Virus record (IMG/VR): IMGVR_UViG_3300045988_062651
Location: 1-46,827 of that record
Reading direction: 5' to 3' (one strand)
Source: a virus
Length of the DNA: 46,827 nt
Shown in pieces: positions 123 through 46,673 of this stretch. The translations under genes and the position numbers were made by a program. A model generated the notes under the pieces. That model was not told the origin of the DNA and made no database searches. It saw nothing but the letters and a program-made list of their open reading frames with translations. The first letter of the stretch is position 1. Every line of letters begins with the position of its first letter.

Positions 123-147
123 TAACTGGCTGATAGTCAATGACTTA
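123..147. promoter_or_regulatory. 25-bp palindromic operator, copy 1 of 7 (TAACT-N3-TGA-N3-TCA-N3-AGTTA family)
   Basis: The sequence is TAACTGGCTGATAGTCAATGACTTA. It lies in the non-coding leader upstream of the first early promoter. Confidence 0.6.
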
Positions 148-277: not shown

Positions 278-475
278 ATGAGCAGACACATTAAGTTAAA
301 TCAGGTCCAGGACCCAGAATATCCGGACCGGACCATTTCAGGCCTTCATTTGGAAGGTGGCAAAATCACTATTGAATTCCTCTCCGGGGAAGGTTCCGAT
401 ATGGTTCCTCTTGAGGGCCTGACCGCTGAACAGCTCAGGGCTTTGGTCCTGGCTATGGCCCAGACCTGCGAATAG
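278..475 (+). CDS. Hypothetical early protein (65 aa)
   Basis: ORF with an ATG start, preceded by the AACCTTAA leader motif and followed by an intrinsic terminator. Confidence 0.6.
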   Translation: MSRHIKLNQVQDPEYPDRTISGLHLEGGKITIEFLSGEGSDMVPLEGLTAEQLRALVLAMAQTCE

Positions 476-483
476 GACTTTTG

Positions 484-522
484 CCCTGGAGGGAACCCTC
501 CAAAACCCTCCGGGGTATTTTC
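484..522 (+). terminator. Intrinsic terminator after the first early gene
   Basis: The 10-bp stem CCCTGGAGGG/CCCTCCGGGG (one G-T pair) is followed by TATTTT. The internal CCCTCC allows an alternative pairing. Confidence 0.6.
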
Positions 523-637
523 CAGATTGCTCCCTTGCTTGGCAGAATGGGTGCGCAAACACTTAAAGTTTTATGCGCCATACCAAAAATTTTTAATAAA
601 CCAAGGGAACTAATTAAAGGTGCATAGGCACCAATAC

Positions 638-671
638 CCTTGCGGCCCTTGATTGCGGCCCCTTGGGTGCC
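638..671 (+). promoter_or_regulatory. GC-rich leader element, copy 1 (CCTTGCGGCCCTTGATTGCGGCCCCTTGGGTGCC)
   Basis: Near-duplicate of 1877-1908. The GGCC blocks can pair as a hairpin. It lies about 60 nt upstream of the ATG at 730. Confidence 0.45.
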
Positions 672-729
672 AAAAGTCCTGAGTAACTCAGGCAGTTATT
701 AATAAAAAACCTTAAAATTATTAAGTATT

Positions 730-1182
730 ATGGCTAAAAATCTTGCTAAGGTTGAGGACCTCCAGGAGGTTGTCACCACCACTACCAACGTTGAACTTTC
801 TAAGGCTGAAGTTGCCTCTGAAATCAGGAAACAGGCTGAGGAACTTATTGGGCATCGTGCCCGCATCGTGCCCGCAGGCACCATTGATTGGGTTGAGGGC
901 TGGGTAAAAACCACCCAGGCAGACCTCAGGCCTAAGACCCCATGCGTGCTGGTTGTTGTTGAGGGGGATGATGGTAAAATCTACCGCCGCACCTATGGCT
1001 CCAAACTTCTTGAGGTAGACTTGACCTCAGAGAAGAGAGAGGCCAAGTCAAGGGTACACGTACCTGAAACCCTCGAGGAGCTTGAGGAAGCCCTTAAGAA
1101 AGCCCAGGCCCAGCTTGAGAGTGCCACCAATAAGGTGAACCTCTTGACCAGAGCCCTCGAGGAAGCCAAGAAGAACCAGTAA
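730..1182 (+). CDS. Hypothetical early protein (150 aa), paralogue of 4109-5089, with a C-terminal coiled coil
   Basis: It shares the motif GHRARIVPAGTIDWVEGWV with GHRCKLVPVGTIEWEEGTV in 4109-5089. It has the conserved leader AACCTTAAAATTATTAAGTATTATG. Confidence 0.75.
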   Translation: MAKNLAKVEDLQEVVTTTTNVELSKAEVASEIRKQAEELIGHRARIVPAGTIDWVEGWVKTTQADLRPKTPCVLVVVEGDDGKIYRRTYGSKLLEVDLTSEKREAKSRVHVPETLEELEEALKKAQAQLESATNKVNLLTRALEEAKKNQ

Positions 1183-1185
1183 AAG

Positions 1186-1214
1186 AGAGGGGGGACTGGT
1201 TCCCCCTTCTTTTT
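1186..1214 (+). terminator. Intrinsic terminator
   Basis: Stem AGAGGGGGGA/TCCCCCTTCT, loop CTGGT, then TTTT. Confidence 0.7.
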
Positions 1215-1254
1215 GTCCTCCATAAAGAATAGAATTGTGCGGGAGCGATACCCG

Positions 1255-1515
1255 ATGGAGGACCCATTAAGTAATCTTATTAAAACAATGAAAGAGAAAG
1301 TATTTAATGCAATCCTTAGTATTGCGGTAGTAGGTCTTGGAGCTCTTATACTCCTTGCAGAAACAAGCCTCCTGATACACCATGGAGTAACACCTGAGAT
1401 GGCCCTTATAGGCAGTCTCTACACAGGGTCCCTTGGCTGGATAATCCTTGCCGCGGTCCTCACAACTACTGACTGGTTCTATGACCACGTAACTAGCAAA
1501 ATCATCAAGAAGTAA
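1255..1515 (+). CDS. Small membrane protein (86 aa from the ATG at 1255; the ORF track starts at a TTG at 1213)
   Basis: Two hydrophobic segments (AILSIAVVGLGALILL and GSLGWIILAAVL). The ATG at 1255 lies downstream of the terminator at 1186-1214. Confidence 0.6.
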   Translation: MEDPLSNLIKTMKEKVFNAILSIAVVGLGALILLAETSLLIHHGVTPEMALIGSLYTGSLGWIILAAVLTTTDWFYDHVTSKIIKK

Positions 1516-1538
1516 CCTTAAAATTATAAGCAAACATT

Positions 1539-1763
1539 ATGGAGAAGATTTTCAAACTTATCGCAGTTGTCGTCCTTAAGGTTGACAATGTGCTCTACAA
1601 AACTTTTGGACTTGTAAGTCCTTTTAGGAGACACAGCTGGGCCCTCAGTGGCAAGAGGCTCCAAAGAGACTTGGACCGCGAGCACGCCACGCGGGACTAT
1701 CTTAATTACCTCTATGGCACAAGTTACACCACTAAGCAAGCCCTTGCATTGCAAAAGGACTAA
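1539..1763 (+). CDS. Hypothetical early protein (74 aa)
   Basis: ORF with the leader AACCTTAAAATTATAAGCAAACATTATG. Confidence 0.55.
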   Translation: MEKIFKLIAVVVLKVDNVLYKTFGLVSPFRRHSWALSGKRLQRDLDREHATRDYLNYLYGTSYTTKQALALQKD

Positions 1764-1774
1764 GTGCTCCGAGA

Positions 1775-1813
1775 ACCCTAAGCCCTTATTCACAAATAAG
1801 TGCTTAGGGTTTG
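1775..1813 (+). terminator. Intrinsic terminator-like hairpin
   Basis: The 9-bp stem ACCCTAAGC/GCTTAGGGT is followed by TTGAT. Confidence 0.5.
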
Positions 1814-1836
1814 ATACAACTTATCTATATATTTAT

Positions 1837-1844
1837 TATATTTG
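1837..1844 (+). promoter_or_regulatory. -7 promoter element TATATTTG (early promoter 2)
   Basis: Exact TAnnTTTG match, 94 nt upstream of the ATG at 1938. Confidence 0.55.
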
Positions 1845-1876
1845 TATATAAGTTGAACGGGGGATAATCCCTATAT

Positions 1877-1908
1877 CCTTGGGCCCTTGAGTGCGGCCCT
1901 TGGGTACC
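1877..1908 (+). promoter_or_regulatory. GC-rich leader element, copy 2
   Basis: CCTTGGGCCCTTGAGTGCGGCCCTTGGGTACC, a near-duplicate of 638-671. Confidence 0.45.
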
Positions 1909-1937
1909 AAATAAAACCTTAAAATCATTAAAGTATT

Positions 1938-2324
1938 ATGACAAACAATTCCCTTTTTGCGGCGCTTTATCGTGGGTACTATGAAGCCGCTAATGACAAT
2001 TCAAGGGTTGCACTTTTGGAGTACTTTGTCCCGGTCATCAGCCGTTGGAATATCCAATGGGGCGATGGTACTCTGGACCCTTTCTCAAATCAGATAATCA
2101 AGTTTGTACATTCGAACGAGAAGCACTTCCTGAAGTACTTTGGAAAAGGCACAAAGCTTGTGTACGGAACTTATTCGAGGAACAATGGTGTCTACTTCAG
2201 TATTGCGGCTCTGGCCAACTTCAATTTTGACCTTCTCCCGAGCCCTGACTTTATTGTGGAGCGGTCCAATGGCCGCCAATACTACTTATATAGGCTGGAA
2301 GACTATGACACCCTAGAACCTTAA
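1938..2324 (+). CDS. Hypothetical early protein (128 aa)
   Basis: ORF with the conserved leader AACCTTAAAATCATTAAAGTATTATG. Confidence 0.7.
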   Translation: MTNNSLFAALYRGYYEAANDNSRVALLEYFVPVISRWNIQWGDGTLDPFSNQIIKFVHSNEKHFLKYFGKGTKLVYGTYSRNNGVYFSIAALANFNFDLLPSPDFIVERSNGRQYYLYRLEDYDTLEP

Positions 2325-2379
2325 TACCAAAATTATATAAAGTTGCACAAGGACTGATACAACATATAAATATAATTGC

Positions 2380-2387
2380 TATATTTG
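2380..2387 (+). promoter_or_regulatory. -7 promoter element TATATTTG (early promoter 3)
   Basis: Exact match, 22 nt upstream of the ATG at 2409. Confidence 0.55.
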
Positions 2388-2408
2388 TAGTAGTTAAATA
2401 GAAGCACA

Positions 2409-2591
2409 ATGAACCAATACGACAAACAATACTTCAAGGATGCGGTTCTTGGAACTGAGTCCAGACACACGGAGCACTGCGACGTGGAATATAACAAGGA
2501 CCTTGATGCGTATATGCTCTTCAAGAACGGCAAACTTGTCGGAGAGGCTAAGGTCCTGAACAACGAAGTATATATTACAAACCTTAAATAG
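2409..2591 (+). CDS. Hypothetical early protein (60 aa)
   Basis: ORF directly downstream of the promoter element at 2380. Confidence 0.55.
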   Translation: MNQYDKQYFKDAVLGTESRHTEHCDVEYNKDLDAYMLFKNGKLVGEAKVLNNEVYITNLK

Positions 2592-2599
2592 TCACTAAG

Positions 2600-2875
2600 A
2601 TGGAAAAGAAAACTGAAAAGCGCACCTTTAGCGCTATCGCTGCGGAGGTCATGAACCTCTGGAAAACAAAGTACTGAAAATATCTTCCTTGGTCCTTGAA
2701 GGGCGCTCTCCCTTATCTGGAAGCAATGCTTGAGTGCGACACCACCGACAAGGACGCGCGATATTACGCAGAGACCGTAGAAAGCGTGGTCATCTGCTTC
2801 CGGGCCAACATTAACAACTGGAGAGGCGCCGACGCCAAGCGCATCAAGGCGGAACTCAAAGAGATGCTCAAGTAA
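2600..2875 (+). CDS. Hypothetical early protein interrupted by an in-frame TGA at 2675-2677 (25 codons, TGA, 65 codons, TAA)
   Basis: Hand translation gives MEKKTEKRTFSAIAAEVMNLWKTKY*KYLPWSLKGALPYLEAMLECDTTDKDARYYAETVESVVICFRANINNWRGADAKRIKAELKEMLK. The leader AACCTTAAATAGTCACTAAG precedes the ATG at 2600. No other plus-strand ORF occupies this gene-sized slot. Confidence 0.5.
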
Positions 2876-2902
2876 AAAGTAATCTTAAAAACATTAAGTA
2901 AT

Positions 2903-3289
2903 ATGGAAAAAGCAAAAGAAATCGAGCTCTTACAGAGCCTCAAGGGTGACACTTATTTCGCTCGGCTTTTTGGCGACCAACAAATCGACGCCATGTGTGA
3001 GAACATTAAAAATGACTTCCCAATTGAACTTGGCTTGAATCTTTTTGAGGGTTCTTCTGTTGCTAAAGAGAATGCGGAACTGAGGAAACAACTTACTCGC
3101 CATGTAAACTGGGAAGAGTCTGTAGCAGAAGGCCTCCTCCTTAAAGCGAATGAACATATGGATGACTCGCTTGAGGGCCTCGCTGCGCGTCTTATTGGCT
3201 ATGAGAAATGTCTGGCTATCAAGCTCCACCTCGCGTTACCCCTTTCTGGAGAAGACCGTGACACTCTAGTTAAACTTTTAACAAAATAA
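2903..3289 (+). CDS. Hypothetical early protein (128 aa)
   Basis: ORF with the leader AATCTTAAAAACATTAAGTAATATG. Confidence 0.7.
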   Translation: MEKAKEIELLQSLKGDTYFARLFGDQQIDAMCENIKNDFPIELGLNLFEGSSVAKENAELRKQLTRHVNWEESVAEGLLLKANEHMDDSLEGLAARLIGYEKCLAIKLHLALPLSGEDRDTLVKLLTK

Positions 3290-3294
3290 GTATT

Positions 3295-3591
3295 ATGAAA
3301 AAGATTAGCGCAAAAAGTAAGCTCGGCCAACACTTTGTTGAGGCTTACATAAGAAGTACACGGCATACCCTTAAAGACGCCTATGTCAAACCAAGTAGCG
3401 CAAAACAGGCTGTCTTCAAACGTTGCCAGCGGCAATGCGAAGCGGAGAAGGGCGATGGCCTTAAGGTCATTAGCTTTAATTGTAACCAATTCACAGTTGC
3501 CTTTGAAGTGACTACAGCTTCTGGAGCTACCGAGCTCCGCGTAATAACCAAGCGTAATGACTATGTAATCCCTTTTGGAGACAAGATATGA
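3295..3591 (+). CDS. Hypothetical early protein (98 aa)
   Basis: ORF preceded by TAAGTATTATG. Confidence 0.65.
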   Translation: MKKISAKSKLGQHFVEAYIRSTRHTLKDAYVKPSSAKQAVFKRCQRQCEAEKGDGLKVISFNCNQFTVAFEVTTASGATELRVITKRNDYVIPFGDKI

Positions 3592-3914
3592 AAGCAAATG
3601 AACTAATGCTTGGCGACTGGGTGAAAGATAAATATAAACCCAAGCCTTATATGGTGGATAGTTGGAAGGACTTTAATAGTGCTGAAGATTTATCCCCTAT
3701 CCCGCTCACTTATGAAATCCTTAAAAAGAATGGATGGAAAGACACTGAATTTTGGTGCGAATATCAAGATGATAATATTTATATTCAGGCTTCTCTACCA
3801 TATATGCGAGGAAGAATTAACGGGATTGAGATTGAGCGCTTCCAATGCGAGTATATACACCAATACCAGCATTTACTTCGCTTGTGTGGACTTGAAAAAG
3901 AAATAAGTATATGA
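3588..3914 (+). CDS. Hypothetical early protein (108 aa)
   Basis: ORF whose start overlaps the upstream stop (ATGA), suggesting translational coupling. Confidence 0.65.
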   Translation: MKANELMLGDWVKDKYKPKPYMVDSWKDFNSAEDLSPIPLTYEILKKNGWKDTEFWCEYQDDNIYIQASLPYMRGRINGIEIERFQCEYIHQYQHLLRLCGLEKEISI

Positions 3915-4049
3915 AAGCAGTTCTTACCAAGCAATCAGGCATGAAGTCCAATACTTTCATTTTGGTAAAGATAATGAGGGAGCAAAAGCCCCTGAGAGCA
4001 AAATGAAAAATAACTTTATAAAAATAGCATAAAAGTCAAAAAAAGTTAT

Positions 4050-4057
4050 TATATTTG
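4050..4057 (+). promoter_or_regulatory. -7 promoter element TATATTTG (early promoter 4)
   Basis: Exact match, 52 nt upstream of the ATG at 4109. Confidence 0.55.
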
Positions 4058-4108
4058 TAGAAAGAAAAATTAAATTTTTTAACCTTAATTTTTAATCCTT
4101 AAAGTATT

Positions 4109-5089
4109 ATGAAACGTAATTTCAAAAAAATGTCCGACGAAGAGTTGGTTGCTCTTCAGGAAACCGCAGATGAACAGACACTTGCTGCTATCGAAGCTGA
4201 ACTTGAATCCCGTGCTACTGCAGCGGCCGAACAGGTCTCTGTAGAAGAGCAGACCGCAGACCCTTCTGAGGACGCTGAGGCCGAGACCGCCGATGGTGCT
4301 GAGCAGGACAAAGCCGCAGAGCTTGAGGAGCTTCTTGCTGAGTGCCAGAAGAATGTTGGTCACCGCTGCAAACTGGTCCCTGTTGGTACCATCGAGTGGG
4401 AAGAAGGTACGGTTGTCGGCTGTGTGAAAATCAAGCGTTCCAACACGGTTGCTTACGCAGTCAAGCTTGACAACGGTAAGCGTGTAGTGAAGAACTACAA
4501 GGCTCCTCTGTTCGAGATTCTCGATGAGGTTGTCGAGCGCGCCAAGGTTACTCGTCATGCTGGTTCACGCACCAAGGCTGAACTTTGGTCTGAGGAGCGT
4601 ATGACTGAAGAAGTTAACAAGTATATCCACAATGTTGGTCGTGCCATTGTCCTCAAGGGTGCTACTGAGGAAGAGAACGTCACTGGCCAGATTACAGGTA
4701 TCGTACCTGTTAAGCGTTCCAACTCAGTTCTCTATCGTGTAGCGGTTCCTGCTCCTACTGAGGAGGACCCTGAGGCTGTTGCCATCGTTCACAAGTCTGT
4801 TGCGAACATTGCTGCTTATGACATCATGGCTGCCACTGAGGAATCTGAGGCTTTCAACGCCAACTATATGGCCCGTCGCGAGAACATGGCCAACCGTACA
4901 CCTCTGACTGGCGCCGAGCTTGTTCTTGACCTCGAGCTTAAGCTTGAGAAAGCTAAGGAGGCCGTTAAGAAAGCTGAAGAGCGTGTCGCTACTCTGGAGA
5001 AAGCTATAGCTGAGAAGAAAGCTCAGCTTGAGGCTACCGCTGCAGAGCCTACCGCAGAAACTACTTCTGAAGAAGAGAACATGCTTTAA
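4109..5089 (+). CDS. Hypothetical early protein (326 aa): acidic N-terminus, two copies of the module shared with 730-1182, C-terminal coiled coil
   Basis: Motifs GHRCKLVPVGTIEWEEGTVVG and VGRAIVLKGATEEENVTGQITGIVPVKRSNSVLYRV. The N-terminal 70 aa are rich in E, D and A. It has the conserved leader. Confidence 0.8.
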   Translation: MKRNFKKMSDEELVALQETADEQTLAAIEAELESRATAAAEQVSVEEQTADPSEDAEAETADGAEQDKAAELEELLAECQKNVGHRCKLVPVGTIEWEEGTVVGCVKIKRSNTVAYAVKLDNGKRVVKNYKAPLFEILDEVVERAKVTRHAGSRTKAELWSEERMTEEVNKYIHNVGRAIVLKGATEEENVTGQITGIVPVKRSNSVLYRVAVPAPTEEDPEAVAIVHKSVANIAAYDIMAATEESEAFNANYMARRENMANRTPLTGAELVLDLELKLEKAKEAVKKAEERVATLEKAIAEKKAQLEATAAEPTAETTSEEENML

Positions 5090-5118
5090 TCAGTATGCAA
5101 ACGTCTAAACATAGGACA

Positions 5119-5149
5119 AGCCCTCGAGTACCCGCTCGGGGGCTTTTTG
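5119..5149 (+). terminator. Intrinsic terminator
   Basis: Stem AGCCCTCGAG/CTCGGGGGCT followed by TTTTTG. Confidence 0.7.
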
Positions 5150-5172
5150 TTTAATTATAAATCCTTAGAATT

Positions 5173-5385
5173 ATGCCATACAAAAGACCCTTATGGTACG
5201 TTGTAGACGACGGAGGCGTGTATAACGTGTTCTCCTCGGACGACTTCGATGAAGACGGACAGTATACGGTAAATCCGGAATACTCTCTCGACGACTTTGA
5301 TATTATCGCCAAATACACGACGGCGGACGCCGCTTGGAATGAAGCTGAGCGCCTGAATCAATTAAGTGAAAAAGACAGGTATTAG
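5173..5385 (+). CDS. Hypothetical acidic early protein (70 aa)
   Basis: ORF with the leader ATCCTTAGAATTATG. Confidence 0.6.
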   Translation: MPYKRPLWYVVDDGGVYNVFSSDDFDEDGQYTVNPEYSLDDFDIIAKYTTADAAWNEAERLNQLSEKDRY

Positions 5386-5387
5386 GC

Positions 5388-5519
5388 ATGAAAGCAAAAT
5401 CAAGGATAGGTTTTTTATTTGGTCCAGAATTGGCCAAAAATTTTTGGATAGTAAATTATATTCTGGATATTTTCTGGCTTGCCAGAAGAGCTGAAATATA
5501 TCTAATTTTTCAAATTTAG
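5388..5519 (+). CDS. Possible 43-aa ORF lying inside repeat element A
   Basis: ATG at 5388 and TAG at 5517. The peptide MKAKSRIGFLFGPELAKNFWIVNYILDIFWLARRAEIYLIFQI resembles a frame of element B at 34253-34347. Confidence 0.25.
   Translation: MKAKSRIGFLFGPELAKNFWIVNYILDIFWLARRAEIYLIFQI
5407..5502 (+). repeat. Dispersed ~95-nt repeat, element A (partner is element B at 34253-34347, opposite strand)
   Basis: Hand alignment of A against the reverse complement of B shows shared blocks CCAGAATTG, AAAAATTT, TGGATAGT, AATTATATT, GCCAGAAGAGC and AAATATATC. Confidence 0.7.
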
Positions 5520-5573
5520 AACTTATTCATCAGTCCATTTTCCTCATTTCGAAATTTACCCTTAAGATATAAT

Positions 5574-6110
5574 ATGTTTGAGACTTTTCAGTTATCTAAT
5601 GACGCTTTCTATTACCTCAAAAATGGAGAGGAACCGCTCGTTGATGAGGCGCTGGATGAAGCACTTGTAGTTGAGGCCCTATATCCAGACGGGTTTACAA
5701 TACTTGACTTCAAACCACTTGGTAATACGGGCTACATTGAAGCGCGAATAGGCCCTAAGATAGTAATGCCGGCCAAAGCTTTGCAGCCTGCCATTAAGCC
5801 TATAACTCAAAGGTGCCAAGAGCTTGGTTATAATGCTGAGACCGTAGAGCGTAACCGCAAAGAGTATGCTGACTCAGATGAAGTGCAAATGCTTTCAAAT
5901 GTATGCCGCTTAGAAATTGTTTGGCTTAATGCTGGGCGCACACAACTAAGGGTTTACTGGAACCGGCTTGACTTGGGCCAAAGAACAGTATTCGGTGAGT
6001 TTCCTGTTTGGTCAACGCCTAAAGGCCTTAAGTATTTTCAGGGAACAAATCCTAATGGCACATTTTACAGATTTTATTTGAAGCATTTTAATAAAGTAGT
6101 TAAATCATGA
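5574..6110 (+). CDS. Hypothetical protein (178 aa)
   Basis: Long ORF with the leader ACCCTTAAGATATAATATG. Confidence 0.7.
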   Translation: MFETFQLSNDAFYYLKNGEEPLVDEALDEALVVEALYPDGFTILDFKPLGNTGYIEARIGPKIVMPAKALQPAIKPITQRCQELGYNAETVERNRKEYADSDEVQMLSNVCRLEIVWLNAGRTQLRVYWNRLDLGQRTVFGEFPVWSTPKGLKYFQGTNPNGTFYRFYLKHFNKVVKS

Positions 6111-6544
6111 CACTTGCAGAACTTATTGAACAATGCGTACGAGTCGAAGGACAAGTGACCGCCGCGCACATTCCTATGGTCAATGCAGATGGAAGTCCCT
6201 TCGAAGTGGAAAATCTTAGCATTGTTACCCGAGAAGATGGTACATTATATGTGGCAGTCCAAGGTCCTGAGAGCCTTCAGCCCGGAACCTACGCAATTCC
6301 TGAAGATTGTACTTTCAAGTACGCTAATCGTCAGATTATTGTGGTTCCTAAAAAAGTCAAAGATACAAGCGTTTTACGGTGCGGTACTTGTAAGCACATC
6401 AAGACCGGAAACAAATGCTGTAAGGGCCAATACTGGGAAACACAGTATTGCGAACTTAAACCAAAAACTATTGGCGGTAAAGCCGAGTATTTTTATCATG
6501 TAAGTCCGAGCGCCAAAGCTTGTGATAAATACGAGGAAGCTTAG
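6107..6544 (+). CDS. Hypothetical Cys-rich protein (145 aa)
   Basis: ATGA overlap with the upstream gene. Contains the cysteine cluster CGTCKHIKTGNKCCKGQYWETQYC. Confidence 0.65.
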   Translation: MTLAELIEQCVRVEGQVTAAHIPMVNADGSPFEVENLSIVTREDGTLYVAVQGPESLQPGTYAIPEDCTFKYANRQIIVVPKKVKDTSVLRCGTCKHIKTGNKCCKGQYWETQYCELKPKTIGGKAEYFYHVSPSAKACDKYEEA

Positions 6545-6732: not shown

Positions 6733-7446
6733 CTATTTTTCGACTCTAAAAACATAACCTTTACCATATACCGTTACTATCTTAACTTTAGGGTCCGCAG
6801 CAATGTATTTGCGTATTGCAGTCATATAGAAGTCCAGGCTACGTTTTGCAAACACATCAATCTGGTGCCACACAGCACTTAGTATTACTTGCGTCATAAG
6901 TAATTGATTTGGGCTGCTAAAGAGGTACGTCATAATGGAGAACTCCTTGTCCGTCAGTTCTATAGTCTTGTGCCCGTCAAAGAACGTGTGGTCCTCAGTA
7001 TTCAAGACCATATCGTGAATTACGTACTCTTTCTTGAATTGTAAAAAGCGAAGAGGCGCATGTTTTGTCCAGGTACGTAGGCGCCACACAAATTCTTCTG
7101 TATTATACGGTTTACGTACAAAGTCTGAAACACCGGCTTCATAAGCAGCAACGGCAGCAAGCGGGTCGTCGTTCTCAACACAAAGAATAATTGGAACGTT
7201 AGGATAATACTTTTGCATTGTGTGCACAAGCGTAAGGTCATTAGGCCTGTCGTACTTATGATAATAATCAAGTACTGCAACGTCAATATTATCTTTGGCA
7301 ATTTCGGATAGCGCGTTTTCCTCGTCTACAGCCCAAGCATTAAAGCATTGTTCCTGTAAGTATTTTACAAGAGTGTCCGCGCCATCATTTTGGAACACCA
7401 AGACACTATACTGCCCAAGGTGCTCAAGTATTGATTGTCTACTCAT
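6733..7446 (-). CDS. Orphan OmpR/PhoB-family response regulator (receiver plus winged-helix DNA-binding domain) with a degenerate receiver pocket
   Basis: Receiver: VLVFQND replaces the hhhhDD motif, VAVLDY retains the acceptor Asp, PIILCVE lacks the conserved Thr/Ser, and DFVRKPY retains the Lys. C-terminus: LTDKEFSIMTYL...VWHQ...RSLDFYMTAIRKYI...IVTVYGKGYVF matches the trans_reg_C pattern. Confidence 0.8.
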   Translation of the reverse strand: MSRQSILEHLGQYSVLVFQNDGADTLVKYLQEQCFNAWAVDEENALSEIAKDNIDVAVLDYYHKYDRPNDLTLVHTMQKYYPNVPIILCVENDDPLAAVAAYEAGVSDFVRKPYNTEEFVWRLRTWTKHAPLRFLQFKKEYVIHDMVLNTEDHTFFDGHKTIELTDKEFSIMTYLFSSPNQLLMTQVILSAVWHQIDVFAKRSLDFYMTAIRKYIAADPKVKIVTVYGKGYVFRVEK

Positions 7447-13467: not shown

Positions 13468-13762
13468 CTAAAAACTGTGTTAACTTTTCCTGTGTATCAA
13501 TAACAAATACTCTAAATCCTAAAGCTCTTAATTCCTCGTGTCTTACTAGCTGTAGTTTTCTTGGCTTAATACCTTCGGACTTGAGCTCTACAAAAATTGC
13601 ACGTCCTTCTGGTAATAATATCAACCGGTCTGGCATGCCCGCATACATATTACCTTGTAACTTCAGGCATATACCACTACGCTGACGTATCTTCTCAACC
13701 AGAGAACGCTCGAGAGTTTTCTCGCTATCCTTCTTTTCTCTTATAATACTTCTGGACGCCAT
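13454..13762 (-). CDS. VRR-NUC domain nuclease
   Basis: GMPDRLILLPEGRAIFVELKSEGIKPRKLQ, a PD..(D/E)xK-type motif typical of VRR-NUC. Confidence 0.8.
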   Translation of the reverse strand: MASRSIIREKKDSEKTLERSLVEKIRQRSGICLKLQGNMYAGMPDRLILLPEGRAIFVELKSEGIKPRKLQLVRHEELRALGFRVFVIDTQEKLTQFLDEQI

Positions 13763-16103
13763 AATTTACAAAAGTCTTAGTTGAGCCTGTATTCTCCCAA
13801 TGGTCAATAGTTCTCATTATTTCATTAAGGTCTCGGGTATTATATCTTGTCATATCAGCACGGTCTTTACCTAAGCACTCACACCAAATCTCTGCAACAC
13901 ACACATAATCTTTGCGTACTGTACCATTTGCTGAGAGAGGGTCTTCAAGCCATTGTTTACGCTCAAATATATCTTTAGAGTCCCAGTCTTCTGGATAAAG
14001 CCGGTCAAGATAATTAATTATAATACCCCGTCTGTTATCTACTTCTTCATGTTTATTCTGAGCATCAACTGCAAGTTTAGCGGCTTCATCCTGGAGATAC
14101 AAAGGCTCATGGTTCTTATAGATTTGATAAGCCTCGGCCCAAATCTGGTCAACCTCTTCGTCCGTCAGGTCTTCAATAACAGACTTTGTAACGCGCGCTA
14201 TATCTACATCTACCGGTAAAAAGCGCCTATTGCCGGAAGAGTCATGTAAAAAGTCTTGTGAGTTGGTTGTACCAAAAAATACACACTGGCGCTTATAAGT
14301 TTCAACCACGCGGCCATAAGCCGGACGGAATGAATCTTCACGCTTTGATATGTAATGCTTGATGGACTCGACTTCTGCTTTCTTCAAGCCTGAGAGCTCT
14401 GCCATTTCAACAATCCATGCACCTTGAATCTGCTCGAAAGCCTCTTTACCTTGAACCGTTGTAAATGTATCTGAGAACCAGTCTCTACCAAGCTTTTTAA
14501 CAAATGTACTTTTATAAGAACCTTGCGGACCTACAATTACCAAAGCTGTGTCAAACTTAATACCAGGCTGGAACACACGAGCAACTGCGGCCGTAAGTGT
14601 TTTTCTTATAATCGCTCTTGTGTACGTAGTATCTTCAGCGCCAAAGTAGTCAATAAGAAGCGTATCAACACGTGGAGAGCCGTCCCAAGATAAGCCCATA
14701 AGGTATTCCTGAATTGGGTGATACTGATTTTTCTCAAAGTCAAGAGCGAAGGCATCATCAATCTTTGCGAAAGACCCGATATTATACAAGCACTCAATGT
14801 AATTATGTAGACCTGCATAATCTACGTCTTTTAGTGGCTCTTCACCTTTGACAATTCTCCAAGGAAGGCTCTTTACAACATAGCGCTTGTTATTAAAAGT
14901 GTTTAGCTTGAAAGCGCCTTTTAATTTTGGGTCATTGGAAAGAATTATATTGATATTGTTTGCTGTAGTTTCATACTCGCCTTTTGTATTAACCGTAAGG
15001 CTCTTAAGCCATTCAGTGTCTTCAGGCGCTGGGTCTTCATAAGGCTCAGCAAAGTCAAATTTTGCGGCCTGGATATTCTCTGTCGCAATTCGTTTGCGGA
15101 TTTCTGGGTCTTTAGTTGCGAAGACTTCCATAGCCTTAAAACTGGCCGTATCTTCTGGCTTTTTATCCAGATTACCAAATTTGTGAATACGAACCAAGTC
15201 AAACGCATTACAGAGCCTATTGCCCGCAGGGTCTGTACTATGGTGTGAATATGCAAACAAATCTTTGTATACAACCAAACCTGAAGCAGTTGAACCTTGT
15301 GTATACGTGTATCGGTCCTTACCAGATTTAACATACACGTCAGAAAGGAAAGTTTCAATCGCAGCGCTCATTGTATAGGCTCGGCAGAAAGTTCCTACAA
15401 TACTTGATTTCTCAGTAGGGTTCTCCTGTTTGTTAATAGTCTTAGTTATATACTCGGCCTCGTCTTCGGGTGATGGCCACTCCATAACATTATGCCAATC
15501 ACTATATGTAGCAAGAACCCTATCAGCAGATAGGAATGCACCGTCCTGAAAGTGGAAATCATACTCCATGTCCTTCGGAATAGAAGGCCAGAACATTAGG
15601 CGATTTATGTCAAAGGTTGTCGAGTCATAACAGTTAATACCGGTGTTACCCGCAATTTTTCTCGCTATAGCTTGATACTCTTCGCAAGAGACCTGTCGGT
15701 CCAAAGGAATGATGAGACGGTGTCTAACATGATTTGGACCTGAGGAGTGCGTGGCATGAAGAACTGCTGCACAATCATAAAGCATAGTGAAGTCCCACCA
15801 GAAATTATCGTGGGAAAAGTCAACATCAAGCGTTATTATTTGCCGGTAAGAAACACTGGCTTTATCGCGCTTGCCACCAACAAGAAAACCGCCAACATAA
15901 CCGCCAAGGTCTTTGACTTTTGCTCGGTCAGCCTTTGGCATAGCATTGTATTCCTTGTAGGTTTCAACAGTTACCACTGGTTTGGCTAAGCGAGCAACAA
16001 GCTCTGACCACATAATTTTTGTATTACGCCAGGTTTTACTTGTTGCACTTGTGCCAATCGCTATGTCTAACTGCTCGTCTATAGTTACTTTAAGCTCAAT
16101 CAT
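13725..16103 (-). CDS. DNA primase / P-loop helicase (VirE / D5-like C-terminal NTPase)
   Basis: 792 aa with Walker A VGPQGSYKSTF. It sits between the polymerase and VRR-NUC, as in the DUF2800-DUF2815-PolA-primase-VRR-NUC-SNF2 phage replication module. Confidence 0.75.
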   Translation of the reverse strand: MIELKVTIDEQLDIAIGTSATSKTWRNTKIMWSELVARLAKPVVTVETYKEYNAMPKADRAKVKDLGGYVGGFLVGGKRDKASVSYRQIITLDVDFSHDNFWWDFTMLYDCAAVLHATHSSGPNHVRHRLIIPLDRQVSCEEYQAIARKIAGNTGINCYDSTTFDINRLMFWPSIPKDMEYDFHFQDGAFLSADRVLATYSDWHNVMEWPSPEDEAEYITKTINKQENPTEKSSIVGTFCRAYTMSAAIETFLSDVYVKSGKDRYTYTQGSTASGLVVYKDLFAYSHHSTDPAGNRLCNAFDLVRIHKFGNLDKKPEDTASFKAMEVFATKDPEIRKRIATENIQAAKFDFAEPYEDPAPEDTEWLKSLTVNTKGEYETTANNINIILSNDPKLKGAFKLNTFNNKRYVVKSLPWRIVKGEEPLKDVDYAGLHNYIECLYNIGSFAKIDDAFALDFEKNQYHPIQEYLMGLSWDGSPRVDTLLIDYFGAEDTTYTRAIIRKTLTAAVARVFQPGIKFDTALVIVGPQGSYKSTFVKKLGRDWFSDTFTTVQGKEAFEQIQGAWIVEMAELSGLKKAEVESIKHYISKREDSFRPAYGRVVETYKRQCVFFGTTNSQDFLHDSSGNRRFLPVDVDIARVTKSVIEDLTDEEVDQIWAEAYQIYKNHEPLYLQDEAAKLAVDAQNKHEEVDNRRGIIINYLDRLYPEDWDSKDIFERKQWLEDPLSANGTVRKDYVCVAEIWCECLGKDRADMTRYNTRDLNEIMRTIDHWENTGSTKTFVNYGVQKYYKRKEG

Positions 16104-18089: not shown

Positions 18090-18168
18090 TGCGCTCAACT
18101 AGATTCGAACTAGCATTGTCAGCAAGCGGTCAAGCAAGACTGAGGACTTACCATTAGTCTATGAGCGC
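18090..18168 (-). tRNA. tRNA-like element 1: canonical acceptor, D and T arms, but a 15-nt anticodon loop
   Basis: Minus strand: GCGCTCA TA GACT AATGGTA AGTC C TCAGT CTTGCTTGACCGCTT GCTGA CAAT GCTAG TTCGAAT CTAGT TGAGCGC A. The loop contains the direct duplication CTTGCT(T)GAC. The 3' end lies 2 nt before the polymerase ATG. Confidence 0.5.
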
Positions 18169-20615: not shown

Positions 20616-21082
20616 TACTCAAGACCATTAAGAAAATCGTACATTTCCTGATACTTGGCCACGTCAAGTTTTGTAATTGACGGAGTACCAAGCTCTGTGA
20701 GCTTCTGCTTTATTTCCACACGGTGCGCATTCATCTTAGTCATTGCCAGTTCACGAAGACCGTCAATTGTAACAGAAGACTGTGTAGACACAGTAGGAGC
20801 GGGTGCCACAGCTGGCTTAGGCTGTTCTGCGGGCTTTGCAGGTGCTGCCGCAGGTGCCGCAGCAGGTTTAGGCTGTTCCGCAGGCTTTGCAGGTGCCACA
20901 GTGGTAGATTTTGCAGGCGCTGCAACAGCTGGCTTAGGCTTAGGCTGTTCAGCCGGTTTCTGTTGTTCAGCTGGTTTAGACTGCTCTCCCGCAGACTTAG
21001 CCAGACCTCCGAATAACGAGCTCAGGAAAGCCTGAGTGCCGTCATCGAGTTTTACATTTACGTTAATTTGAATAGGTTCCAT
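20615..21082 (-). CDS. Hypothetical protein with a Pro/Ala/Glu/Lys-rich repeat linker
   Basis: KPAEQQKPAEQPKPKPAVAAPAK...KPAEQPKPAAAPAAAPAKPAEQPKPAV lies between small N- and C-terminal domains. Confidence 0.7.
   Translation of the reverse strand: MEPIQINVNVKLDDGTQAFLSSLFGGLAKSAGEQSKPAEQQKPAEQPKPKPAVAAPAKSTTVAPAKPAEQPKPAAAPAAAPAKPAEQPKPAVAPAPTVSTQSSVTIDGLRELAMTKMNAHRVEIKQKLTELGTPSITKLDVAKYQEMYDFLNGLE
20805..20980. repeat. Imperfect tandem coding repeat (unit about 50 nt, GGCTTAGGCTGTTC.GC.GGCTTTGCAGGTGC)
   Basis: The units at 20814-20846 and 20865-20897, and a degenerate third at 20931-20977, encode the KPAEQPKP repeats. Confidence 0.7.
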
Positions 21083-21491
21083 CTATAATATTGTTAATGA
21101 TGTTTACTAAGTCCTGAACGAGCAAGTCGCCATCTGCAACAACGTCATTGAACAATTCTTTGTCGTCGGCTGTAACGGTTAGCACGTGAGTGGCATAAAT
21201 ATACTTAGCCACGTAGATACCCCGCTTAATACAGAAGCTGTCCTGCTTTTCTGTAGCATCATGCCACAGGTCACAACCCGCTTCATATATAGCGGAAACG
21301 GACACGCCTACATACTGTGCGAGGGCTTCAAGCTGGTCTACTGAAACGTGGCCTTTTCCTTTAAGAATTCGGCGGAGCGCGAGGTCAGCATACTTGCTTG
21401 TAGGAAACATGACACTTGCTACGTCAGCCTGGTTCAGCTTGTAGTTTTTAAGCACGTTGTTCAAATAAAATAGTGATTGTTGTTCTTGCAT
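21063..21491 (-). CDS. XRE-type helix-turn-helix DNA-binding protein; first gene of the middle operon
   Basis: LNQADVASVMF...LRRILKGKGHVSVDQLEALAQYVGVSVSAIY has the HTH_XRE pattern. It lies directly downstream of control region 1. Confidence 0.6.
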   Translation of the reverse strand: MQEQQSLFYLNNVLKNYKLNQADVASVMFPTSKYADLALRRILKGKGHVSVDQLEALAQYVGVSVSAIYEAGCDLWHDATEKQDSFCIKRGIYVAKYIYATHVLTVTADDKELFNDVVADGDLLVQDLVNIINNIIDGTYSN

Positions 21492-21702
21492 TGTTCTGCC
21501 TCATTTATTTTCATATACGAATATAGCTGAAATTTTTCATATAAAAAAATAAAATTAAAAAATTTTTTCGTTTTGCATTTAAGGGCTTTTTCAGCTAATT
21601 ATTAAGGCGTAAAAAGCATACGTAGCTGAAAACAGGCAGGCCAAGCTTCCTAAACAATACGTTCGAGCTCTAAACAATCCTAAACAATACTTTGTTTAAC
21701 CC

Positions 21703-21727
21703 TAACTAATTGAAAATCAATCAGTTA
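21703..21727. promoter_or_regulatory. 25-bp palindromic operator, copy 2
   Basis: TAACTAATTGAAAATCAATCAGTTA. Confidence 0.6.
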
Positions 21728-21804
21728 GACCATCCTAAACAATAAAACAATAATTTCTATATATAGTATATATGAATTTTATAAAATCCGTAAAATCTAT
21801 ATAA

Positions 21805-21812
21805 CAAATCTA
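21805..21812 (-). promoter_or_regulatory. -7 promoter element TAGATTTG (class II), reading toward the middle operon
   Basis: The plus strand reads CAAATCTA. The extended minus-strand string TTAGATTTGTTA is shared with 29085 and 42488. Confidence 0.5.
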
Positions 21813-21871
21813 AATTACAGTAATGGTCCAATGTTTTTATATATTTTATTGTTTTATTGTTTAGACTGTCC

Positions 21872-21896
21872 TAATTTATTGAAAATCAATCAGTTA
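21872..21896. promoter_or_regulatory. 25-bp palindromic operator, copy 3
   Basis: TAATTTATTGAAAATCAATCAGTTA. Confidence 0.55.
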
Positions 21897-21995
21897 TGAT
21901 AAACAAAGTATTGTTTAGGATTGTTTGAACGGCCAAATTATTGTTTAGAAACCGCATAACATGGGAATCAGTTTGAGACCGAACAGCTTGCGCAA

Positions 21996-42504: not shown

Positions 42505-44136
42505 TTAATTACCCCTCTTAATACCCTTATGCAAACTCTTACTAGTTCGCATTTCGATAATGCCTGTCAGCATATCAGGCGCATCATCATGCTTTGTAGT
42601 CTTATTATTCTTTTTGCGGTACGTCTTTATGGCCGCTGCAAATTTAGGCCACCTCTTTTCCCAGCCTTCAGGAAAGTAGATGTCTGAACATACAAGAGCT
42701 GAATTAGAGAATATGCGGACTTGCTTGTTCTTTGTCTGCGTGAACGTTTCAATAACAGAAAACATATTGTGCTGTACTTCACGCAATATACGTTTAACGT
42801 TTCGTGCAAACTGACGACCGCCATTGTTGCCCTCAATTCTTGCTCGTTTAGTTCTATTAACTGTAAGCATTCTAGCTAGCTTAGGCTCAGTTACTTCCAT
42901 CGGCTCATCAGAGTAAAGGATGTCGGTTATGTACGCGCCCATCGGTGTATTTACGAAACAGCCAGAAGCCAAGAAGTCAGCACCGGTGTCAGCTGTATCT
43001 GTGTAATTCCATCGTTGAGTAGAAGACAAGAAAGCCTGAGGCGGGTCCGCAGGATTATATGTTTTGAACTCCTCATACATTAGGCCCTCTTTAGGCGTCG
43101 GGTCCTGCTGGTACTGAGTGTCATAAGTTAGCGGGTCCACCTCCTGTAGATGATGCAGCTCTTCAACAGTGTGTTTTACAGGCCACAATGCTATCTCCTC
43201 TGTCTCCTCAACTATCACGTCCTCACCGCTCTCGTCTTGAACATGCTTGGTGACGGTCTCGGTACGTAAAGCGGGCAAGCTAAGCACGGTCCAGTTGTCT
43301 GGCTCTGTGTCCAATAGATAGCCGCATAAGTCGCGCTCATGCAGGCGCTGCATTATTATAATAATAGGTGTCTCCCTGGAGTTAGTACGTGAACGGATAG
43401 TATTCTCAAACCGGGAATTGATACGCTCTCGAACAATATCAGATGTTGCGTCCTCCGGTTTTAATGGGTCATCTATAACAATAGCGCCAGGGAAGACATT
43501 AGACGCAGCGCCAATTAAAGCCAACTTAGTCTGAGTCGTCTCGTCAAAAGAAAAGGCTTGCGATATGCGCTCAGCCATCGCAGCGTCAGCCGCGGCAGAC
43601 ATCTCTTGCATGGCGCCGGCACCGAAACCAGTAACCTGGCCCTGCGTTGATACCGCATAAAATGAACCTTTGGCTTTAGTTTCCCAAGACCTGGTACTGC
43701 CTTTGTTCTCATTAAGAAGCGCTGACTGCGGAAACAGCTCTTTATAGAGCGGTAACGTCATTATCTCTCTGATAGTAGACGAGTTGTCATTAACCAGCAA
43801 GTCTGAATACGACAGGTGCATAAACTGGCACTTAGGGTTAAGGGCAAAGCACCAGGATATGAACATCTTAATAGCGATAAGGGTCTTGCCATATCGTGGA
43901 GGCATGTTAATGATAAGATGCTTGACGTCTCCATCAACAACTGACTGTAGGGCGGTGAATAACTTTTTATGCAGGTCTGCCACAATAAGAGACGAGCCAT
44001 ATTGTGCCTTAAACATAGCTCGTGAGTAGCTCTCAAGTGAGCCTTTTAGCTCTAACGCAAAAAGGTCTCTTGCGGAGACCTGTCCCTTGACTTGTGCAAT
44101 AGCCGCCTGCTGTATATCCTCTAATGACTGTGCCAT
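42505..44136 (-). CDS. terL: Terminase large subunit
   Basis: Walker A-like MPPRYGKT, Walker B AIVIDDPLKPED, 543 aa. Confidence 0.85.
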   Translation of the reverse strand: MAQSLEDIQQAAIAQVKGQVSARDLFALELKGSLESYSRAMFKAQYGSSLIVADLHKKLFTALQSVVDGDVKHLIINMPPRYGKTLIAIKMFISWCFALNPKCQFMHLSYSDLLVNDNSSTIREIMTLPLYKELFPQSALLNENKGSTRSWETKAKGSFYAVSTQGQVTGFGAGAMQEMSAAADAAMAERISQAFSFDETTQTKLALIGAASNVFPGAIVIDDPLKPEDATSDIVRERINSRFENTIRSRTNSRETPIIIIMQRLHERDLCGYLLDTEPDNWTVLSLPALRTETVTKHVQDESGEDVIVEETEEIALWPVKHTVEELHHLQEVDPLTYDTQYQQDPTPKEGLMYEEFKTYNPADPPQAFLSSTQRWNYTDTADTGADFLASGCFVNTPMGAYITDILYSDEPMEVTEPKLARMLTVNRTKRARIEGNNGGRQFARNVKRILREVQHNMFSVIETFTQTKNKQVRIFSNSALVCSDIYFPEGWEKRWPKFAAAIKTYRKKNNKTTKHDDAPDMLTGIIEMRTSKSLHKGIKRGN

Positions 44137-44148
44137 AGTAGACTGAAC

Positions 44149-44925
44149 TTATTTTAACAATGTCTCACGAATAATAACATAAGCCTCTCGGGATATTGGC
44201 TGGTCAGGAATAAGGCCCGGCACGGCAGACGGTACTCCCGTGATTGGCGTTGCGTCAAGGCTCATAGGGCCTTTGCCGAACAGCCTGTCCCAAATGCGCT
44301 CGATTGTGCACGTCTCGCCAATTCTTGCGTCAAGTTGAATACGTTTAATGATGGCTTTTATAGCGAGCGGCATTTTGTCATTAGTCATTAAGGCCGCTAG
44401 CTGTGTTTCATTGCAAGTGAGAAGGCAGGCCAGCAAATTGGCCGTATCTGTCTTGCTGAGGCGGACTGACAGGTTAATACCAAGGTTGTTGAGCAGTTTA
44501 GCCATCTCAGGTCTATTAGTGCCCTGGAGAGTTTGAAGTGTTAGCAGCTGAGAGGCTGACATCTCTTGGCCGGTCTTAGTTACTACCTGTACCTCTTTAA
44601 GGTCAAGCGGGTCCGCCGGTGTTTGTTCGTCTATTGCAGACTCAATAGCTTTACGCTCGGCTTCTGCCTTTGCCGCAGTAAGAGATTCATCAGTGTCGGT
44701 TGGAGCGAGGTCCTCTACGCGCATCCCGTGCTTTGCCGCCAACTCCTCCCGCTCTTTTTGCTTTTGCTGCTCCTCGAGACCCGCATTACGAGCTTTGAGC
44801 TGAATGCGCGCTAACTCTTTAGCTGAAAGCTGTTCATGGATAGCCTCGGCCTGTGCCTCGCGTTTCTCCGGGGCAACATTGGGCAGAATGTCGCCAAGTC
44901 TAGATGATATGTTGTCTTTAGTCAT
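44149..44925 (-). CDS. Putative terminase small subunit (258 aa)
   Basis: Assigned only by position immediately upstream of terL. Confidence 0.4.
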   Translation of the reverse strand: MTKDNISSRLGDILPNVAPEKREAQAEAIHEQLSAKELARIQLKARNAGLEEQQKQKEREELAAKHGMRVEDLAPTDTDESLTAAKAEAERKAIESAIDEQTPADPLDLKEVQVVTKTGQEMSASQLLTLQTLQGTNRPEMAKLLNNLGINLSVRLSKTDTANLLACLLTCNETQLAALMTNDKMPLAIKAIIKRIQLDARIGETCTIERIWDRLFGKGPMSLDATPITGVPSAVPGLIPDQPISREAYVIIRETLLK

Positions 44926-46134: not shown

Positions 46135-46199
46135 GGCAATCTTGTGAGAAAATTGGCATTTTTTAGCGAATTTAACAGAAAATGGGGTCTTAAACAATA

Positions 46200-46224
46200 T
46201 AACTGACTGATTTCCAGCCAGTTA
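46200..46224. promoter_or_regulatory. 25-bp palindromic operator, copy 4
   Basis: TAACTGACTGATTTCCAGCCAGTTA. Confidence 0.55.
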
Positions 46225-46274
46225 GGCCTTTTTCTAAACAATCTTAAACAATCATAAACAATGATTGTTTGTCC

Positions 46275-46299
46275 TAACTGACTGATTTTCAATAAGTTA
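46275..46299. promoter_or_regulatory. 25-bp palindromic operator, copy 5 (the best palindrome)
   Basis: TAACTGACTGATTTTCAATAAGTTA. Confidence 0.6.
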
Positions 46300-46447
46300 G
46301 ACCTTCTTAAACAAAACAAACACAATTTCCTATATATAGATATATGGAAATATCAATTTTTATATAAAATTATTTAGTGCCATATATCTAAAAACAATTC
46401 TATATAATTATTTTATATATTTTATTGTTTTATTGTTTAAGAGGACC

Positions 46448-46472
46448 TAATTTCTTGATTTTCAATTAGTTA
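46448..46472. promoter_or_regulatory. 25-bp palindromic operator, copy 6
   Basis: TAATTTCTTGATTTTCAATTAGTTA. Confidence 0.55.
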
Positions 46473-46515
46473 CGGAAAACAATACTTTGTTTAAGATTGT
46501 TTAAGACCGTTTTTC

Positions 46516-46540
46516 TAAATAGCTGATTTTCAACCAGTTA
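46516..46540. promoter_or_regulatory. 25-bp palindromic operator, copy 7 (degenerate left half)
   Basis: TAAATAGCTGATTTTCAACCAGTTA. Confidence 0.45.
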
Positions 46541-46673
46541 CATATTTTTTATTGTTTAAGCGCGGTCCATTTTCCATTATTATTCGAGGGCCCTCCGTGT
46601 CAGCTACGAACTACGTTATAATAGATTTGAGGACCAGGCGGATATTTAGTGCCCTTTACGCAGTAGTTCCAAT

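Follow-up and report, generated by a model that had tools for sequence, protein, structure and literature searches.

The stretch considered here, IMG/VR virus record IMGVR_UViG_3300045988_062651 (46,827 nucleotides; hereafter the window, to whose full length all coordinates refer), comes from a Bacteroidota phage and carries at 21651-21947 a non-coding element made up of short boxes, palindromes and an AT-rich core, with a second copy at 46191-46558 (copies 1 and 2). Positions 1-55 and 46773-46827, at the two ends of the window, have the same 55-nt sequence, which is what a circular assembly with closure at k=55 would produce; the non-redundant genome is then 46,772 bp, with the centres of the two elements 24,576 bp apart, or 52.5% of the circle. 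Copy 1 precedes the replication operon, a minus-strand block from 21491 to 6733 that begins with the genes for an XRE-like helix-turn-helix (HTH) protein, a 155-aa protein, a DUF2800 nuclease, an Enc34-type SSB and PolA, continues with a VapE primase-helicase, VRR-NUC, an SNF2 helicase and a dUTPase, and ends with an OmpR-family response regulator. Copy 2 stands before the packaging operon, a minus-strand block from 46056 to 21996 that holds the packaging, structural and lysis genes. A plus-strand module without assigned function lies at 278-6544. A sequence-only reading of the window had noticed that the two copies divide the circular genome in two, one half for replication and early functions and the other for structure and lysis, a partition that is kept in phages P2559Y, TCUEAP1 and BF503P4 and in a group of ~36-kb contigs. 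The same reading offered, as its second choice, that the elements are AT-rich, iteron-flanked replication origins, and this is the view that the evidence favours: copy 1 is probably one of two origins of the phage, of the type known from staphylococcal pathogenicity islands (SaPIs), and would be read by the phage's own Pri-Rep, the VapE protein.

The ordered layout first described for copy 1 is real: the boxes, the palindromes, the AT-rich core and a collinear second copy were all found (Table 1). The box TAAACAAT has 16 exact matches in the window against 2.98 expected; none of 100 shuffled sequences reached 16. Fourteen of the 16 exact sites fall within the two elements, and their polarity is strict in both, left arms on the plus strand and right arms on the minus strand. 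With up to one mismatch allowed, copy 1 has six boxes on each side of a dyad centre near 21799, every box being paired at the same distance within 1 bp. The positions originally given for the boxes stand for the most part, except that ATTGTTTA and ATTGTTTG begin at 21910 and 21920 and not at 21909 and 21919. The symmetry of copy 2 is below that of copy 1 (one extra left box, two extra palindromes), and the iteron-bearing spans are 297 bp for copy 1 and 368 bp for copy 2. The two copies have boxes, palindromes and core ends in common and differ in their spacers. Their cores (96 bp and ~103 bp; 84-88% AT) are the two least stable duplex segments genome-wide, over 60 as well as over 90 bp (z 4.0-4.6).

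A second class of site is the palindrome TAACTnnnTGAnnnTCAnnnAGTTA (consensus CCTAACTnACTGAwwwTCAATCAGTTAGGCC), which has seven matches against 0.52 expected, two of them in copy 1, four in copy 2 and one on its own. The mirror symmetry that had been claimed for the whole element applies to the boxes, with their opposed polarity, and not to the palindromes, whose asymmetric centres point the same way in the left and right arms of copy 1, as a direct repeat of 93% identity. That two classes of site imply at least two DNA-binding factors is still reasonable. Comparison with relatives assigns the minus strand as the sense strand of both copies, from a ..AAAAC.TTT.. motif beside the upstream inner pair; an inverted placement relative to the relatives, suggested by TATATAG, was rejected on the strength of that motif. 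Also rejected was the idea of the whole element as one long hairpin or cruciform in single-stranded DNA or RNA: the two arms have unrelated sequences in the spacers between the boxes, the centres of the palindromes run in the same direction, and copy 2 lacks symmetry.

Table 1. Positions of the two elements, the proposed initiator and associated features (coordinates of the window unless a locus is named; a dot marks features given no strand)
Feature	Coordinates	Strand	Remarks
Copy 1, left boxes (at most one mismatch)	21651, 21671, 21681, 21691(-), 21736, 21744		
Copy 1, right boxes (at most one mismatch)	21848, 21856, 21900(+), 21910, 21920, 21940		
Copy 1, left outer iteron cluster	21651..21698	-	boxes on + strand of left side: TAAACAAT at 21651, 21671 and 21681, inverted box 21691-21698; operon-proximal arm in gene sense; boxes invariant in relatives
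Copy 1, 25-bp palindrome TAACTAATTGAAAATCAATCAGTTA	21703..21727	.	second site class; one of 7 sites vs 0.52 expected
Copy 1, inner iteron pair TAAACAATAAAACAAT	21736..21751	-	abuts core; inner pair universal in relatives
Copy 1, AT-rich asymmetric core	21752..21847	-	proposed DNA-unwinding element; second least stable 90-bp segment, z=4.0
Copy 1, inner iteron pair ATTGTTTTATTGTTTA	21848..21863	-	opposite orientation
Copy 1, second palindrome TAATTTATTGAAAATCAATCAGTTA	21872..21896	.	centre oriented like that of the first palindrome; 93% direct repeat
Copy 1, right outer iteron cluster	21900..21947	-	inverted box 21900; - strand boxes 21910, 21920, 21940
Copy 2, left outer arm	46191..46271	-	box 46191, palindrome 46200-46224, boxes 46235/46245/46255 (10-bp phasing), inverted box 46264
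Copy 2, palindrome and degenerate inner pair TAAACAAAACAAAC	46275..46320	-	palindrome 46275-46299; inner pair 46308-46321
Copy 2, AT-rich core	46321..46423	-	contains the genome's least stable 90-bp segment (46331-46421; z=4.6)
Copy 2, right arm	46424..46558	-	inner pair 46424/46432, palindrome 46448-46472, boxes 46476(+), 46486, 46496, palindrome 46516-46540, box 46551
Seventh palindrome	123..147	.	missing from the sequence-only reading; no iterons nearby; ~60 bp upstream of host-type -7 box TATATTTG (206-213) heading + strand module
XRE-like HTH protein, 142 aa	21063..21491	-	first gene downstream of copy 1; weak PHROG repressor match
VapE-type Pri-Rep, 792 aa	13725..16103	-	proposed initiator; Pfam VapE-like domain
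VapE, AEP primase	residues 1-372, nt 14988-16103	-	predicted structure and Foldseek match to AEP primases
VapE, SF3 helicase core	residues ~373-728, nt 13920-14987	-	match to PDB 7PDS
VapE, C-terminal winged helix	residues ~693-792, nt 13728-14027	-	predicted structure and Foldseek match to 7PDS
Extended terS-side element, locus L083	750-1650		
Extended terS-side element, locus L114 (contig IMGVR_UViG_3300045988_100356)	14480-14906		
Extended terS-side element, locus L169	8440-9100		

Conservation sets the boxes and palindromes apart from the DNA around them. In three close IMG/VR relatives (alignment A1) both are invariant and the intervening spacers vary. The 3-nt centre of the palindromes switches between TTT and AAA among these relatives (L001, L003, L004) and between the window's two copies, the half-sites remaining fixed. 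A common layout is found in many divergent viral contigs, more than 100 of them: an outer cluster of two direct boxes and one inverted box, a spacer of ~35-40 bp, an inner pair of direct boxes, an asymmetric AT-rich core of ~95-110 bp and then the mirror image. The first motif used to scan the viral collection, TAAACAATNNTAAACAAT, was too permissive for AT-rich DNA, and its matches were filtered by script; the exact 19-mer of the inner pair occurs in at least 120 stretches of viral contigs. By comparison, ~186,000 bacterial genomes yielded only 36 matches to the 19-mer. It is a phage motif and not a host motif, because the real elements among these 36 all lie on phage-sized contigs of metagenome-assembled genomes, which have the same replication genes, and none on an isolate chromosome. 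A host factor is accordingly an unlikely reader of the boxes. Deposited phages gave no close DNA relatives in megablast searches with half the window and with L169, the closest by VapE being the BF503P4 group (Bacteroides fragilis; 61% identity) and the cultured Croceibacter phage P2559Y (55%). No Rfam family matched; literature searches by box sequence returned primer lists only, and those on iteron origins in VapE or Bacteroides phages found no earlier description.

The genomic positions of the elements are also kept. In P2559Y a large element lies just upstream of terS and a reduced one between the lysis genes and the replication module, which are the two positions seen in the window. Gene maps of 21 loci follow the same plan, with one element ahead of the HTH/replication module and the other across the early genes from it, immediately before terS, so that the two bracket the early module; the polarity of the core relative to the operons is fixed in all evaluable cases. 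Among the ~36-kb contigs, the element beside terS is longer or occurs as a tandem duplication, its two units separated by ~650 bp, and combines two variants of the box, TAAACAAT and GAAACAAT.

Such positions bear on two alternatives, both of which we regard as very improbable. The first is a miniature inverted-repeat transposable element (MITE), non-autonomous and inserted twice, whose terminal inverted repeats would be transposase-binding boxes. Long imperfect inverted repeats are indeed present (66 nt at 76% and 52 nt at 83% complementary), the genome has at least two copies and the distribution is wide. However, a MITE should appear as near-identical copies with target-site duplications at non-syntenic sites, whereas these elements are syntenic from Flavobacteriia phages to the window phage, across very divergent genomes; the copies share boxes, palindromes and core ends and not spacers, left and right arm spacers are unrelated, no transposase accompanies the element, and the boxes change along with the C-terminal domain of VapE. 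The second is a pac or cos packaging site, with binding boxes for the small terminase around a cleavage region, which the placement of one copy 1-200 bp upstream of an Sf6-type terS in most relatives might suggest, as might the record of P2559Y, which opens inside the terS-side element. That record is circular, however, and its start point arbitrary. A packaging site would be a single site beside terS read by the cognate small terminase, but here the element is present in full a second time, ~24.5 kb away and ahead of the replication genes, and two sites would give half-genomes; in phage Bacuni_F1 the element is not at terS at all. Nor does the window have an Sf6-type TerS, and its TerL is just 25% identical to that of P2559Y, yet the boxes are the same. 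With the packaging module swapped and the boxes unchanged, TerS was rejected as their reader. The packaging module of the window (42505-46056, minus strand) is unlike that of its relatives: where these have the Sf6-type TerS, the genes before TerL encode a 246-aa NUMOD1-domain protein, a GNAT acetyltransferase (44967-45302) and an unassigned 258-aa protein. TerL is 58% identical to that of locus L147.

Among the genes of the window, only the replication module is common to the other box-bearing phages, as far as the DNA compared goes (mostly partial loci; P2559Y complete). Within this module the VapE protein has the features of an initiator. Its residues 373-728 match PDB 7PDS, the SaPI1 Rep1-DNA complex (PMC9371898), with E=3e-76, and with a profile built from four sequences the match reaches the C-terminal domain as well, covering residues 15-442 of the 477 in the chain (E=1.4e-92). 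In an AlphaFold2 model the last 140 aa fold as a winged helix (pLDDT 87-96 over model residues 40-140), with TRDLNEIMRTID as the modelled recognition helix and residues 117-137 as the wing. The only significant PDB matches of this model in Foldseek are six chains of 7PDS (E 1e-5 to 1e-3, probability 1.0, TM 0.62). Profile libraries returned nothing for the N-terminal domain, which was assigned by structure prediction: the model of the first 372 aa (pLDDT 90.6) matches archaeo-eukaryotic primases (AEP), namely S-2L PrimPol (E=5e-6) and RepB' (E=4e-4). Because the helicase and winged helix match SaPI1 Rep1 and the N-terminal model matches AEP primases, the VapE of the window is, on these predictions, a Pri-Rep fusion.

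If the winged helix reads the boxes, the two should change together, and by and large they appear to. The signature AEIWCECLG..RYxTR[DE][IL]N..STKxF..YGxQKYY is kept in nearly all phages with TAAACAAT. BF503P4 is closest to the window over VapE columns 1-740 (63% vs 54-57% for the others) but the most distant over the last ~75 residues (45% vs 56-59% in the box-bearing phages), the changes falling in the recognition helix and the wing. No TAAACAAT array was found in BF503P4, which retains a core-like 35-mer and the palindrome at both homologous positions; G[TC]AAAATG, which has only 7 of its 20 matches in the two homologous regions, is no more than suggestive as a replacement box. Bacuni_F1, with another winged-helix sequence, keeps the architecture but builds it from 11 copies of the box GTAAACG; the AT core measures 107 bp, and the element comes right behind the VapE stop codon. 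TCUEAP1 also differs in its winged helix and likewise keeps the architecture, with inner pairs of TGTCTCA around cores of ~103-107 bp; one element precedes the replication module and the other stands ~105 bp ahead of terS. The covariation is not strict, because the L172/L211 group, in which, as in Bacuni_F1, the element comes right after the VapE stop codon, pairs the TAAACAAT inner pair with a clearly different winged helix, one similar to that of Bacuni_F1; its outer boxes differ, being GTAAACAAAGG at 12-bp phasing. With this exception, box sequence seems to track the winged helix of the cognate VapE.

Other proteins of the window do not track the boxes. The HTH protein encoded at 21063-21491 and the response regulator at 6733-7446 had been put forward for binding tests, and both are poor candidates for the 8-mer. 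The HTH protein is 24% identical to homologues from box-bearing phages and 26% to the one from a box-less phage, and it was rejected as box reader together with the 155-aa protein, both being present in the box-less BF503P4 and the HTH protein being equally distant from all relatives. The response regulator (minus strand; receiver and winged-helix domains of the OmpR/PhoB family) has no homologue in the other box-bearing phages sampled, and was likewise rejected. Its best NCBIfam match is the Bacteroides RprY, far under the family cut-off, and no cognate kinase was seen.

The response regulator also figures in a third alternative, that the elements are partition (centromere) sites or sites for a host nucleoid or two-component protein, such as the phage OmpR-family regulator reading TGTTTA-type repeats. 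PhoP-type sites are direct repeats of TGTTTA and resemble the outer boxes, which are phased at 10 bp, and P1 parS has two classes of box around a bend. Sites of the OmpR/PhoB family would be direct repeats at 10-11 bp accompanied by a co-occurring regulator, however, and here the inner pairs are at 8-9 bp and the regulator is confined to the window among the phages sampled. Neither ParA/ParB nor an integrase was found among ~40 open reading frames scanned, many structural ones lying outside the scan. With the box pair essentially absent from bacterial chromosomes and the real elements all on phage-sized contigs, we give this explanation very little credence.

The preferred reading, an origin recognised by the Pri-Rep, has a published precedent. 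SaPI Reps are self-loading initiator-helicases whose C-terminal winged helix recognises iterons of 5-6 nt; their origins, on fragments of 318-367 bp, comprise 6-12 iterons and a central AT-rich region, with at least two iterons per side in opposite directions, and two hexamers probably load, one per side (PMC9371898). The elements of the window are alike in having opposed sets of short iterons around an AT-rich centre within ~300-370 bp, and the phage encodes its own Rep-type SF3 helicase with a C-terminal winged helix. The primase is fused in this phage as in SaPI5, being adjacent in other SaPI systems; the systems used for comparison are SaPI1, SaPIbov1 and SaPI5 (PMC9371898, with the work of Ubeda et al. 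cited there). The initiator gene directly before the element, another SaPI trait, is seen in some relatives but not in the window. The differences are that the boxes here are 8-9 nt, that each side has an inner pair and, farther out, a cluster in which one box is inverted, and that there are two copies per genome at operon heads instead of one after the rep gene. Moreover, the carrier is a lytic Bacteroidota siphovirus and not a Gram-positive satellite.

By analogy, the opposed TAAACAAT sets, six per side, would flank an unwinding element of ~95-105 bp and be read by the C-terminal winged helix of the Pri-Rep. The protein would bind the outer and inner clusters on each side, one hexamer would load itself at either side of the core, the core would melt, and the N-terminal AEP primase would lay the first primers; the neighbouring genes for PolA, SSB and nuclease could provide the remainder of the replisome. 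Lying between the two clusters of each arm, the 25-bp palindromes would be sites for a second factor, perhaps a dimeric accessory or architectural protein.

Several observations weigh against an origin of this kind. Unlike the SaPI origin, the elements of the window are duplicated and stand apart from VapE, at distances of 5.5 kb and ~30 kb. Each stands precisely where one of the two long operons starts, and the polarity of the core is constant; a transcriptional element would behave in this way too. The palindrome class between the clusters has no counterpart in the SaPI model. GC and AT skew, in the window as well as in the co-oriented P2559Y, show no origin signal and follow the coding strand. 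The replacement boxes of BF503P4 are weakly defined, and the L172/L211 group breaks the pairing of box with winged helix. Binding, melting and initiation, and the reason for two copies, are what we infer from comparing sequences and predicted structures, and it is on this basis that we hold origin function to be probable.

The most serious alternative, in our estimate an unlikely one, is purely transcriptional control: boxes and palindromes would be operators or activator sites that switch the early and late operons, and replication would start elsewhere. In every lineage examined both copies stand at the head of one long operon and the end of the previous one, and the direction of the asymmetric core with respect to the operons is constant. 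This fixed polarity could be inherited synteny, however, and in Bacuni_F1 and the L211 group the element lies between two genes of one operon, after VapE. An HTH gene directly follows copy 1, but neither its product nor the response regulator goes with the boxes, which follow the winged helix of the initiator-helicase instead. The sequence-only reading had placed a promoter, TAGATTTG at 21805-21812(-), in core 1. The box is there and fits the Bacteroidota -7 consensus, a motif that is mildly enriched overall (59 vs 44 expected); its reading as a promoter found no specific support. Housekeeping promoters of Bacteroidota have a -7 TAnnTTTG with the -33 TTTG ~19-21 bp upstream, whereas the putative -33 element here is ATTG at 16-nt spacing, and the closest relatives read TAGACTTG or TAGGCTTG at the -7 site, where the core carries indels. 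A better host-type -7 box for copy 2, TATATTTG, is at 46127-46134, between the element and its operon, and similar boxes follow both P2559Y elements, outside the element. Downstream of copy 1 there is only a -7 box with one mismatch, TATATTCG.

The lone palindrome at 123-147, which counts in favour of transcriptional control, precedes a third promoter-like site, and for this reason the reader of the palindromes may, to judge from its placement, be a transcription factor. The 142-aa HTH protein, set aside for the 8-mer, is by inference a candidate for this reader. Several palindromes include, by eye, a match with 0-1 mismatch to the E. coli IHF consensus WATCAANNNNTTR, with an A-tract before it (the window; L296 23202-23221 and 23384-23403; L298 ~18110-18140), and might be sites for an architectural protein. 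The inner part ATTGAwwwTCAAT also occurs in BF503P4 and Bacuni_F1.

The elements may combine origin and transcription functions. Several other viral origins are comparable in part. In P4 (ori and crr, 4.5 kb apart) and SPP1 (oriL and oriR), two separated cis regions per genome carry the same initiator-binding repeats. In P4 they are read by a primase-helicase, the alpha protein, through its C-terminal domain, and the iterons do not form mirrored arrays around an AT core at both ori and crr. The SPP1 initiator, G38P, is not a helicase; the comparison with either phage concerns layout. In SV40 (large T antigen) and the papillomaviruses (E1 plus E2), an SF3 initiator-helicase reads inverted short boxes beside an AT-rich tract and forms a double hexamer, the origin being part of the control region that separates early from late transcription units. 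In the papillomaviruses a palindromic second class of site, for E2, helps loading; the likeness of the E1 box ATTGTT is coincidental. The origin-binding domains are unrelated (N-terminal there, a C-terminal winged helix here) and the viruses are eukaryotic, so the comparison is an analogy only. Phages of the Streptococcus thermophilus Sfi21 type and the lactococcal P335 type have a repeat-rich non-coding origin beside a VapE/VirE-like primase gene in a helicase-primase module, but this origin is single and its repeats are organised otherwise. A coupled switch can be imagined, in which the Pri-Rep and the palindrome factor occupy both elements, possibly looped as in P4 ori-crr, start replication and, as SV40 large T antigen does at its control region, turn the early operon off and the late one on; we put it forward tentatively, as a doubtful extension of the origin reading. 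Were it true, the polyoma/papilloma origin-promoter module would have a conserved counterpart among bacterial viruses, in a large lineage of Bacteroidota siphoviruses with swappable iteron/winged-helix specificities.

Two further features lie between copy 2 and the end of the early operon. The plus-strand module at 278-6544 has about ten open reading frames with no family matches and with homologues only in L147, L280 and L292; exact TATATTTG boxes occur on the plus strand of this region at 206, 1837, 2380 and 4050. It looks like an accessory insertion. Between copy 2 and this module is a 49-bp tandem repeat (2.9 copies, 91% matches) at 46676-46818, which carries on into 1-55 by way of the overlap of the assembly. 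The repeat motif ATTTAGTGCC recurs within the core of copy 2, the related sites being 46371-46386 and 46643-46658. At a comparable place BF503P4 has a perfect 55-nt direct repeat with a 65-bp period (L296 23590-23709).

The origins of phages of Bacteroidota, major bacteria of gut, rumen and sea, are essentially unmapped, and the common VapE/PolA/SNF2 cassette has been without an assigned origin. The elements described here offer a concrete and widely conserved origin candidate with a named reader domain. Natural variants of specificity (TAAACAAT, GTAAACG, TGTCTCA) suit swap experiments, and at least three cultured phage-host pairs are at hand (P2559Y/Croceibacter, TCUEAP1/Elizabethkingia and the Bacteroides phages). 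Practical uses would include origin annotation, phage-derived replicons for Bacteroidota and phage resistance by origin decoys of the phage-encoded resistance (PER) type. The finding also raises a new question, that of why two such elements are placed exactly at the early/late boundaries. The SaPI-like design is already known; here it is duplicated and more elaborate. If the reading is true, the SaPI model of a self-loading helicase would reach from Gram-positive satellites to lytic phages of another phylum.

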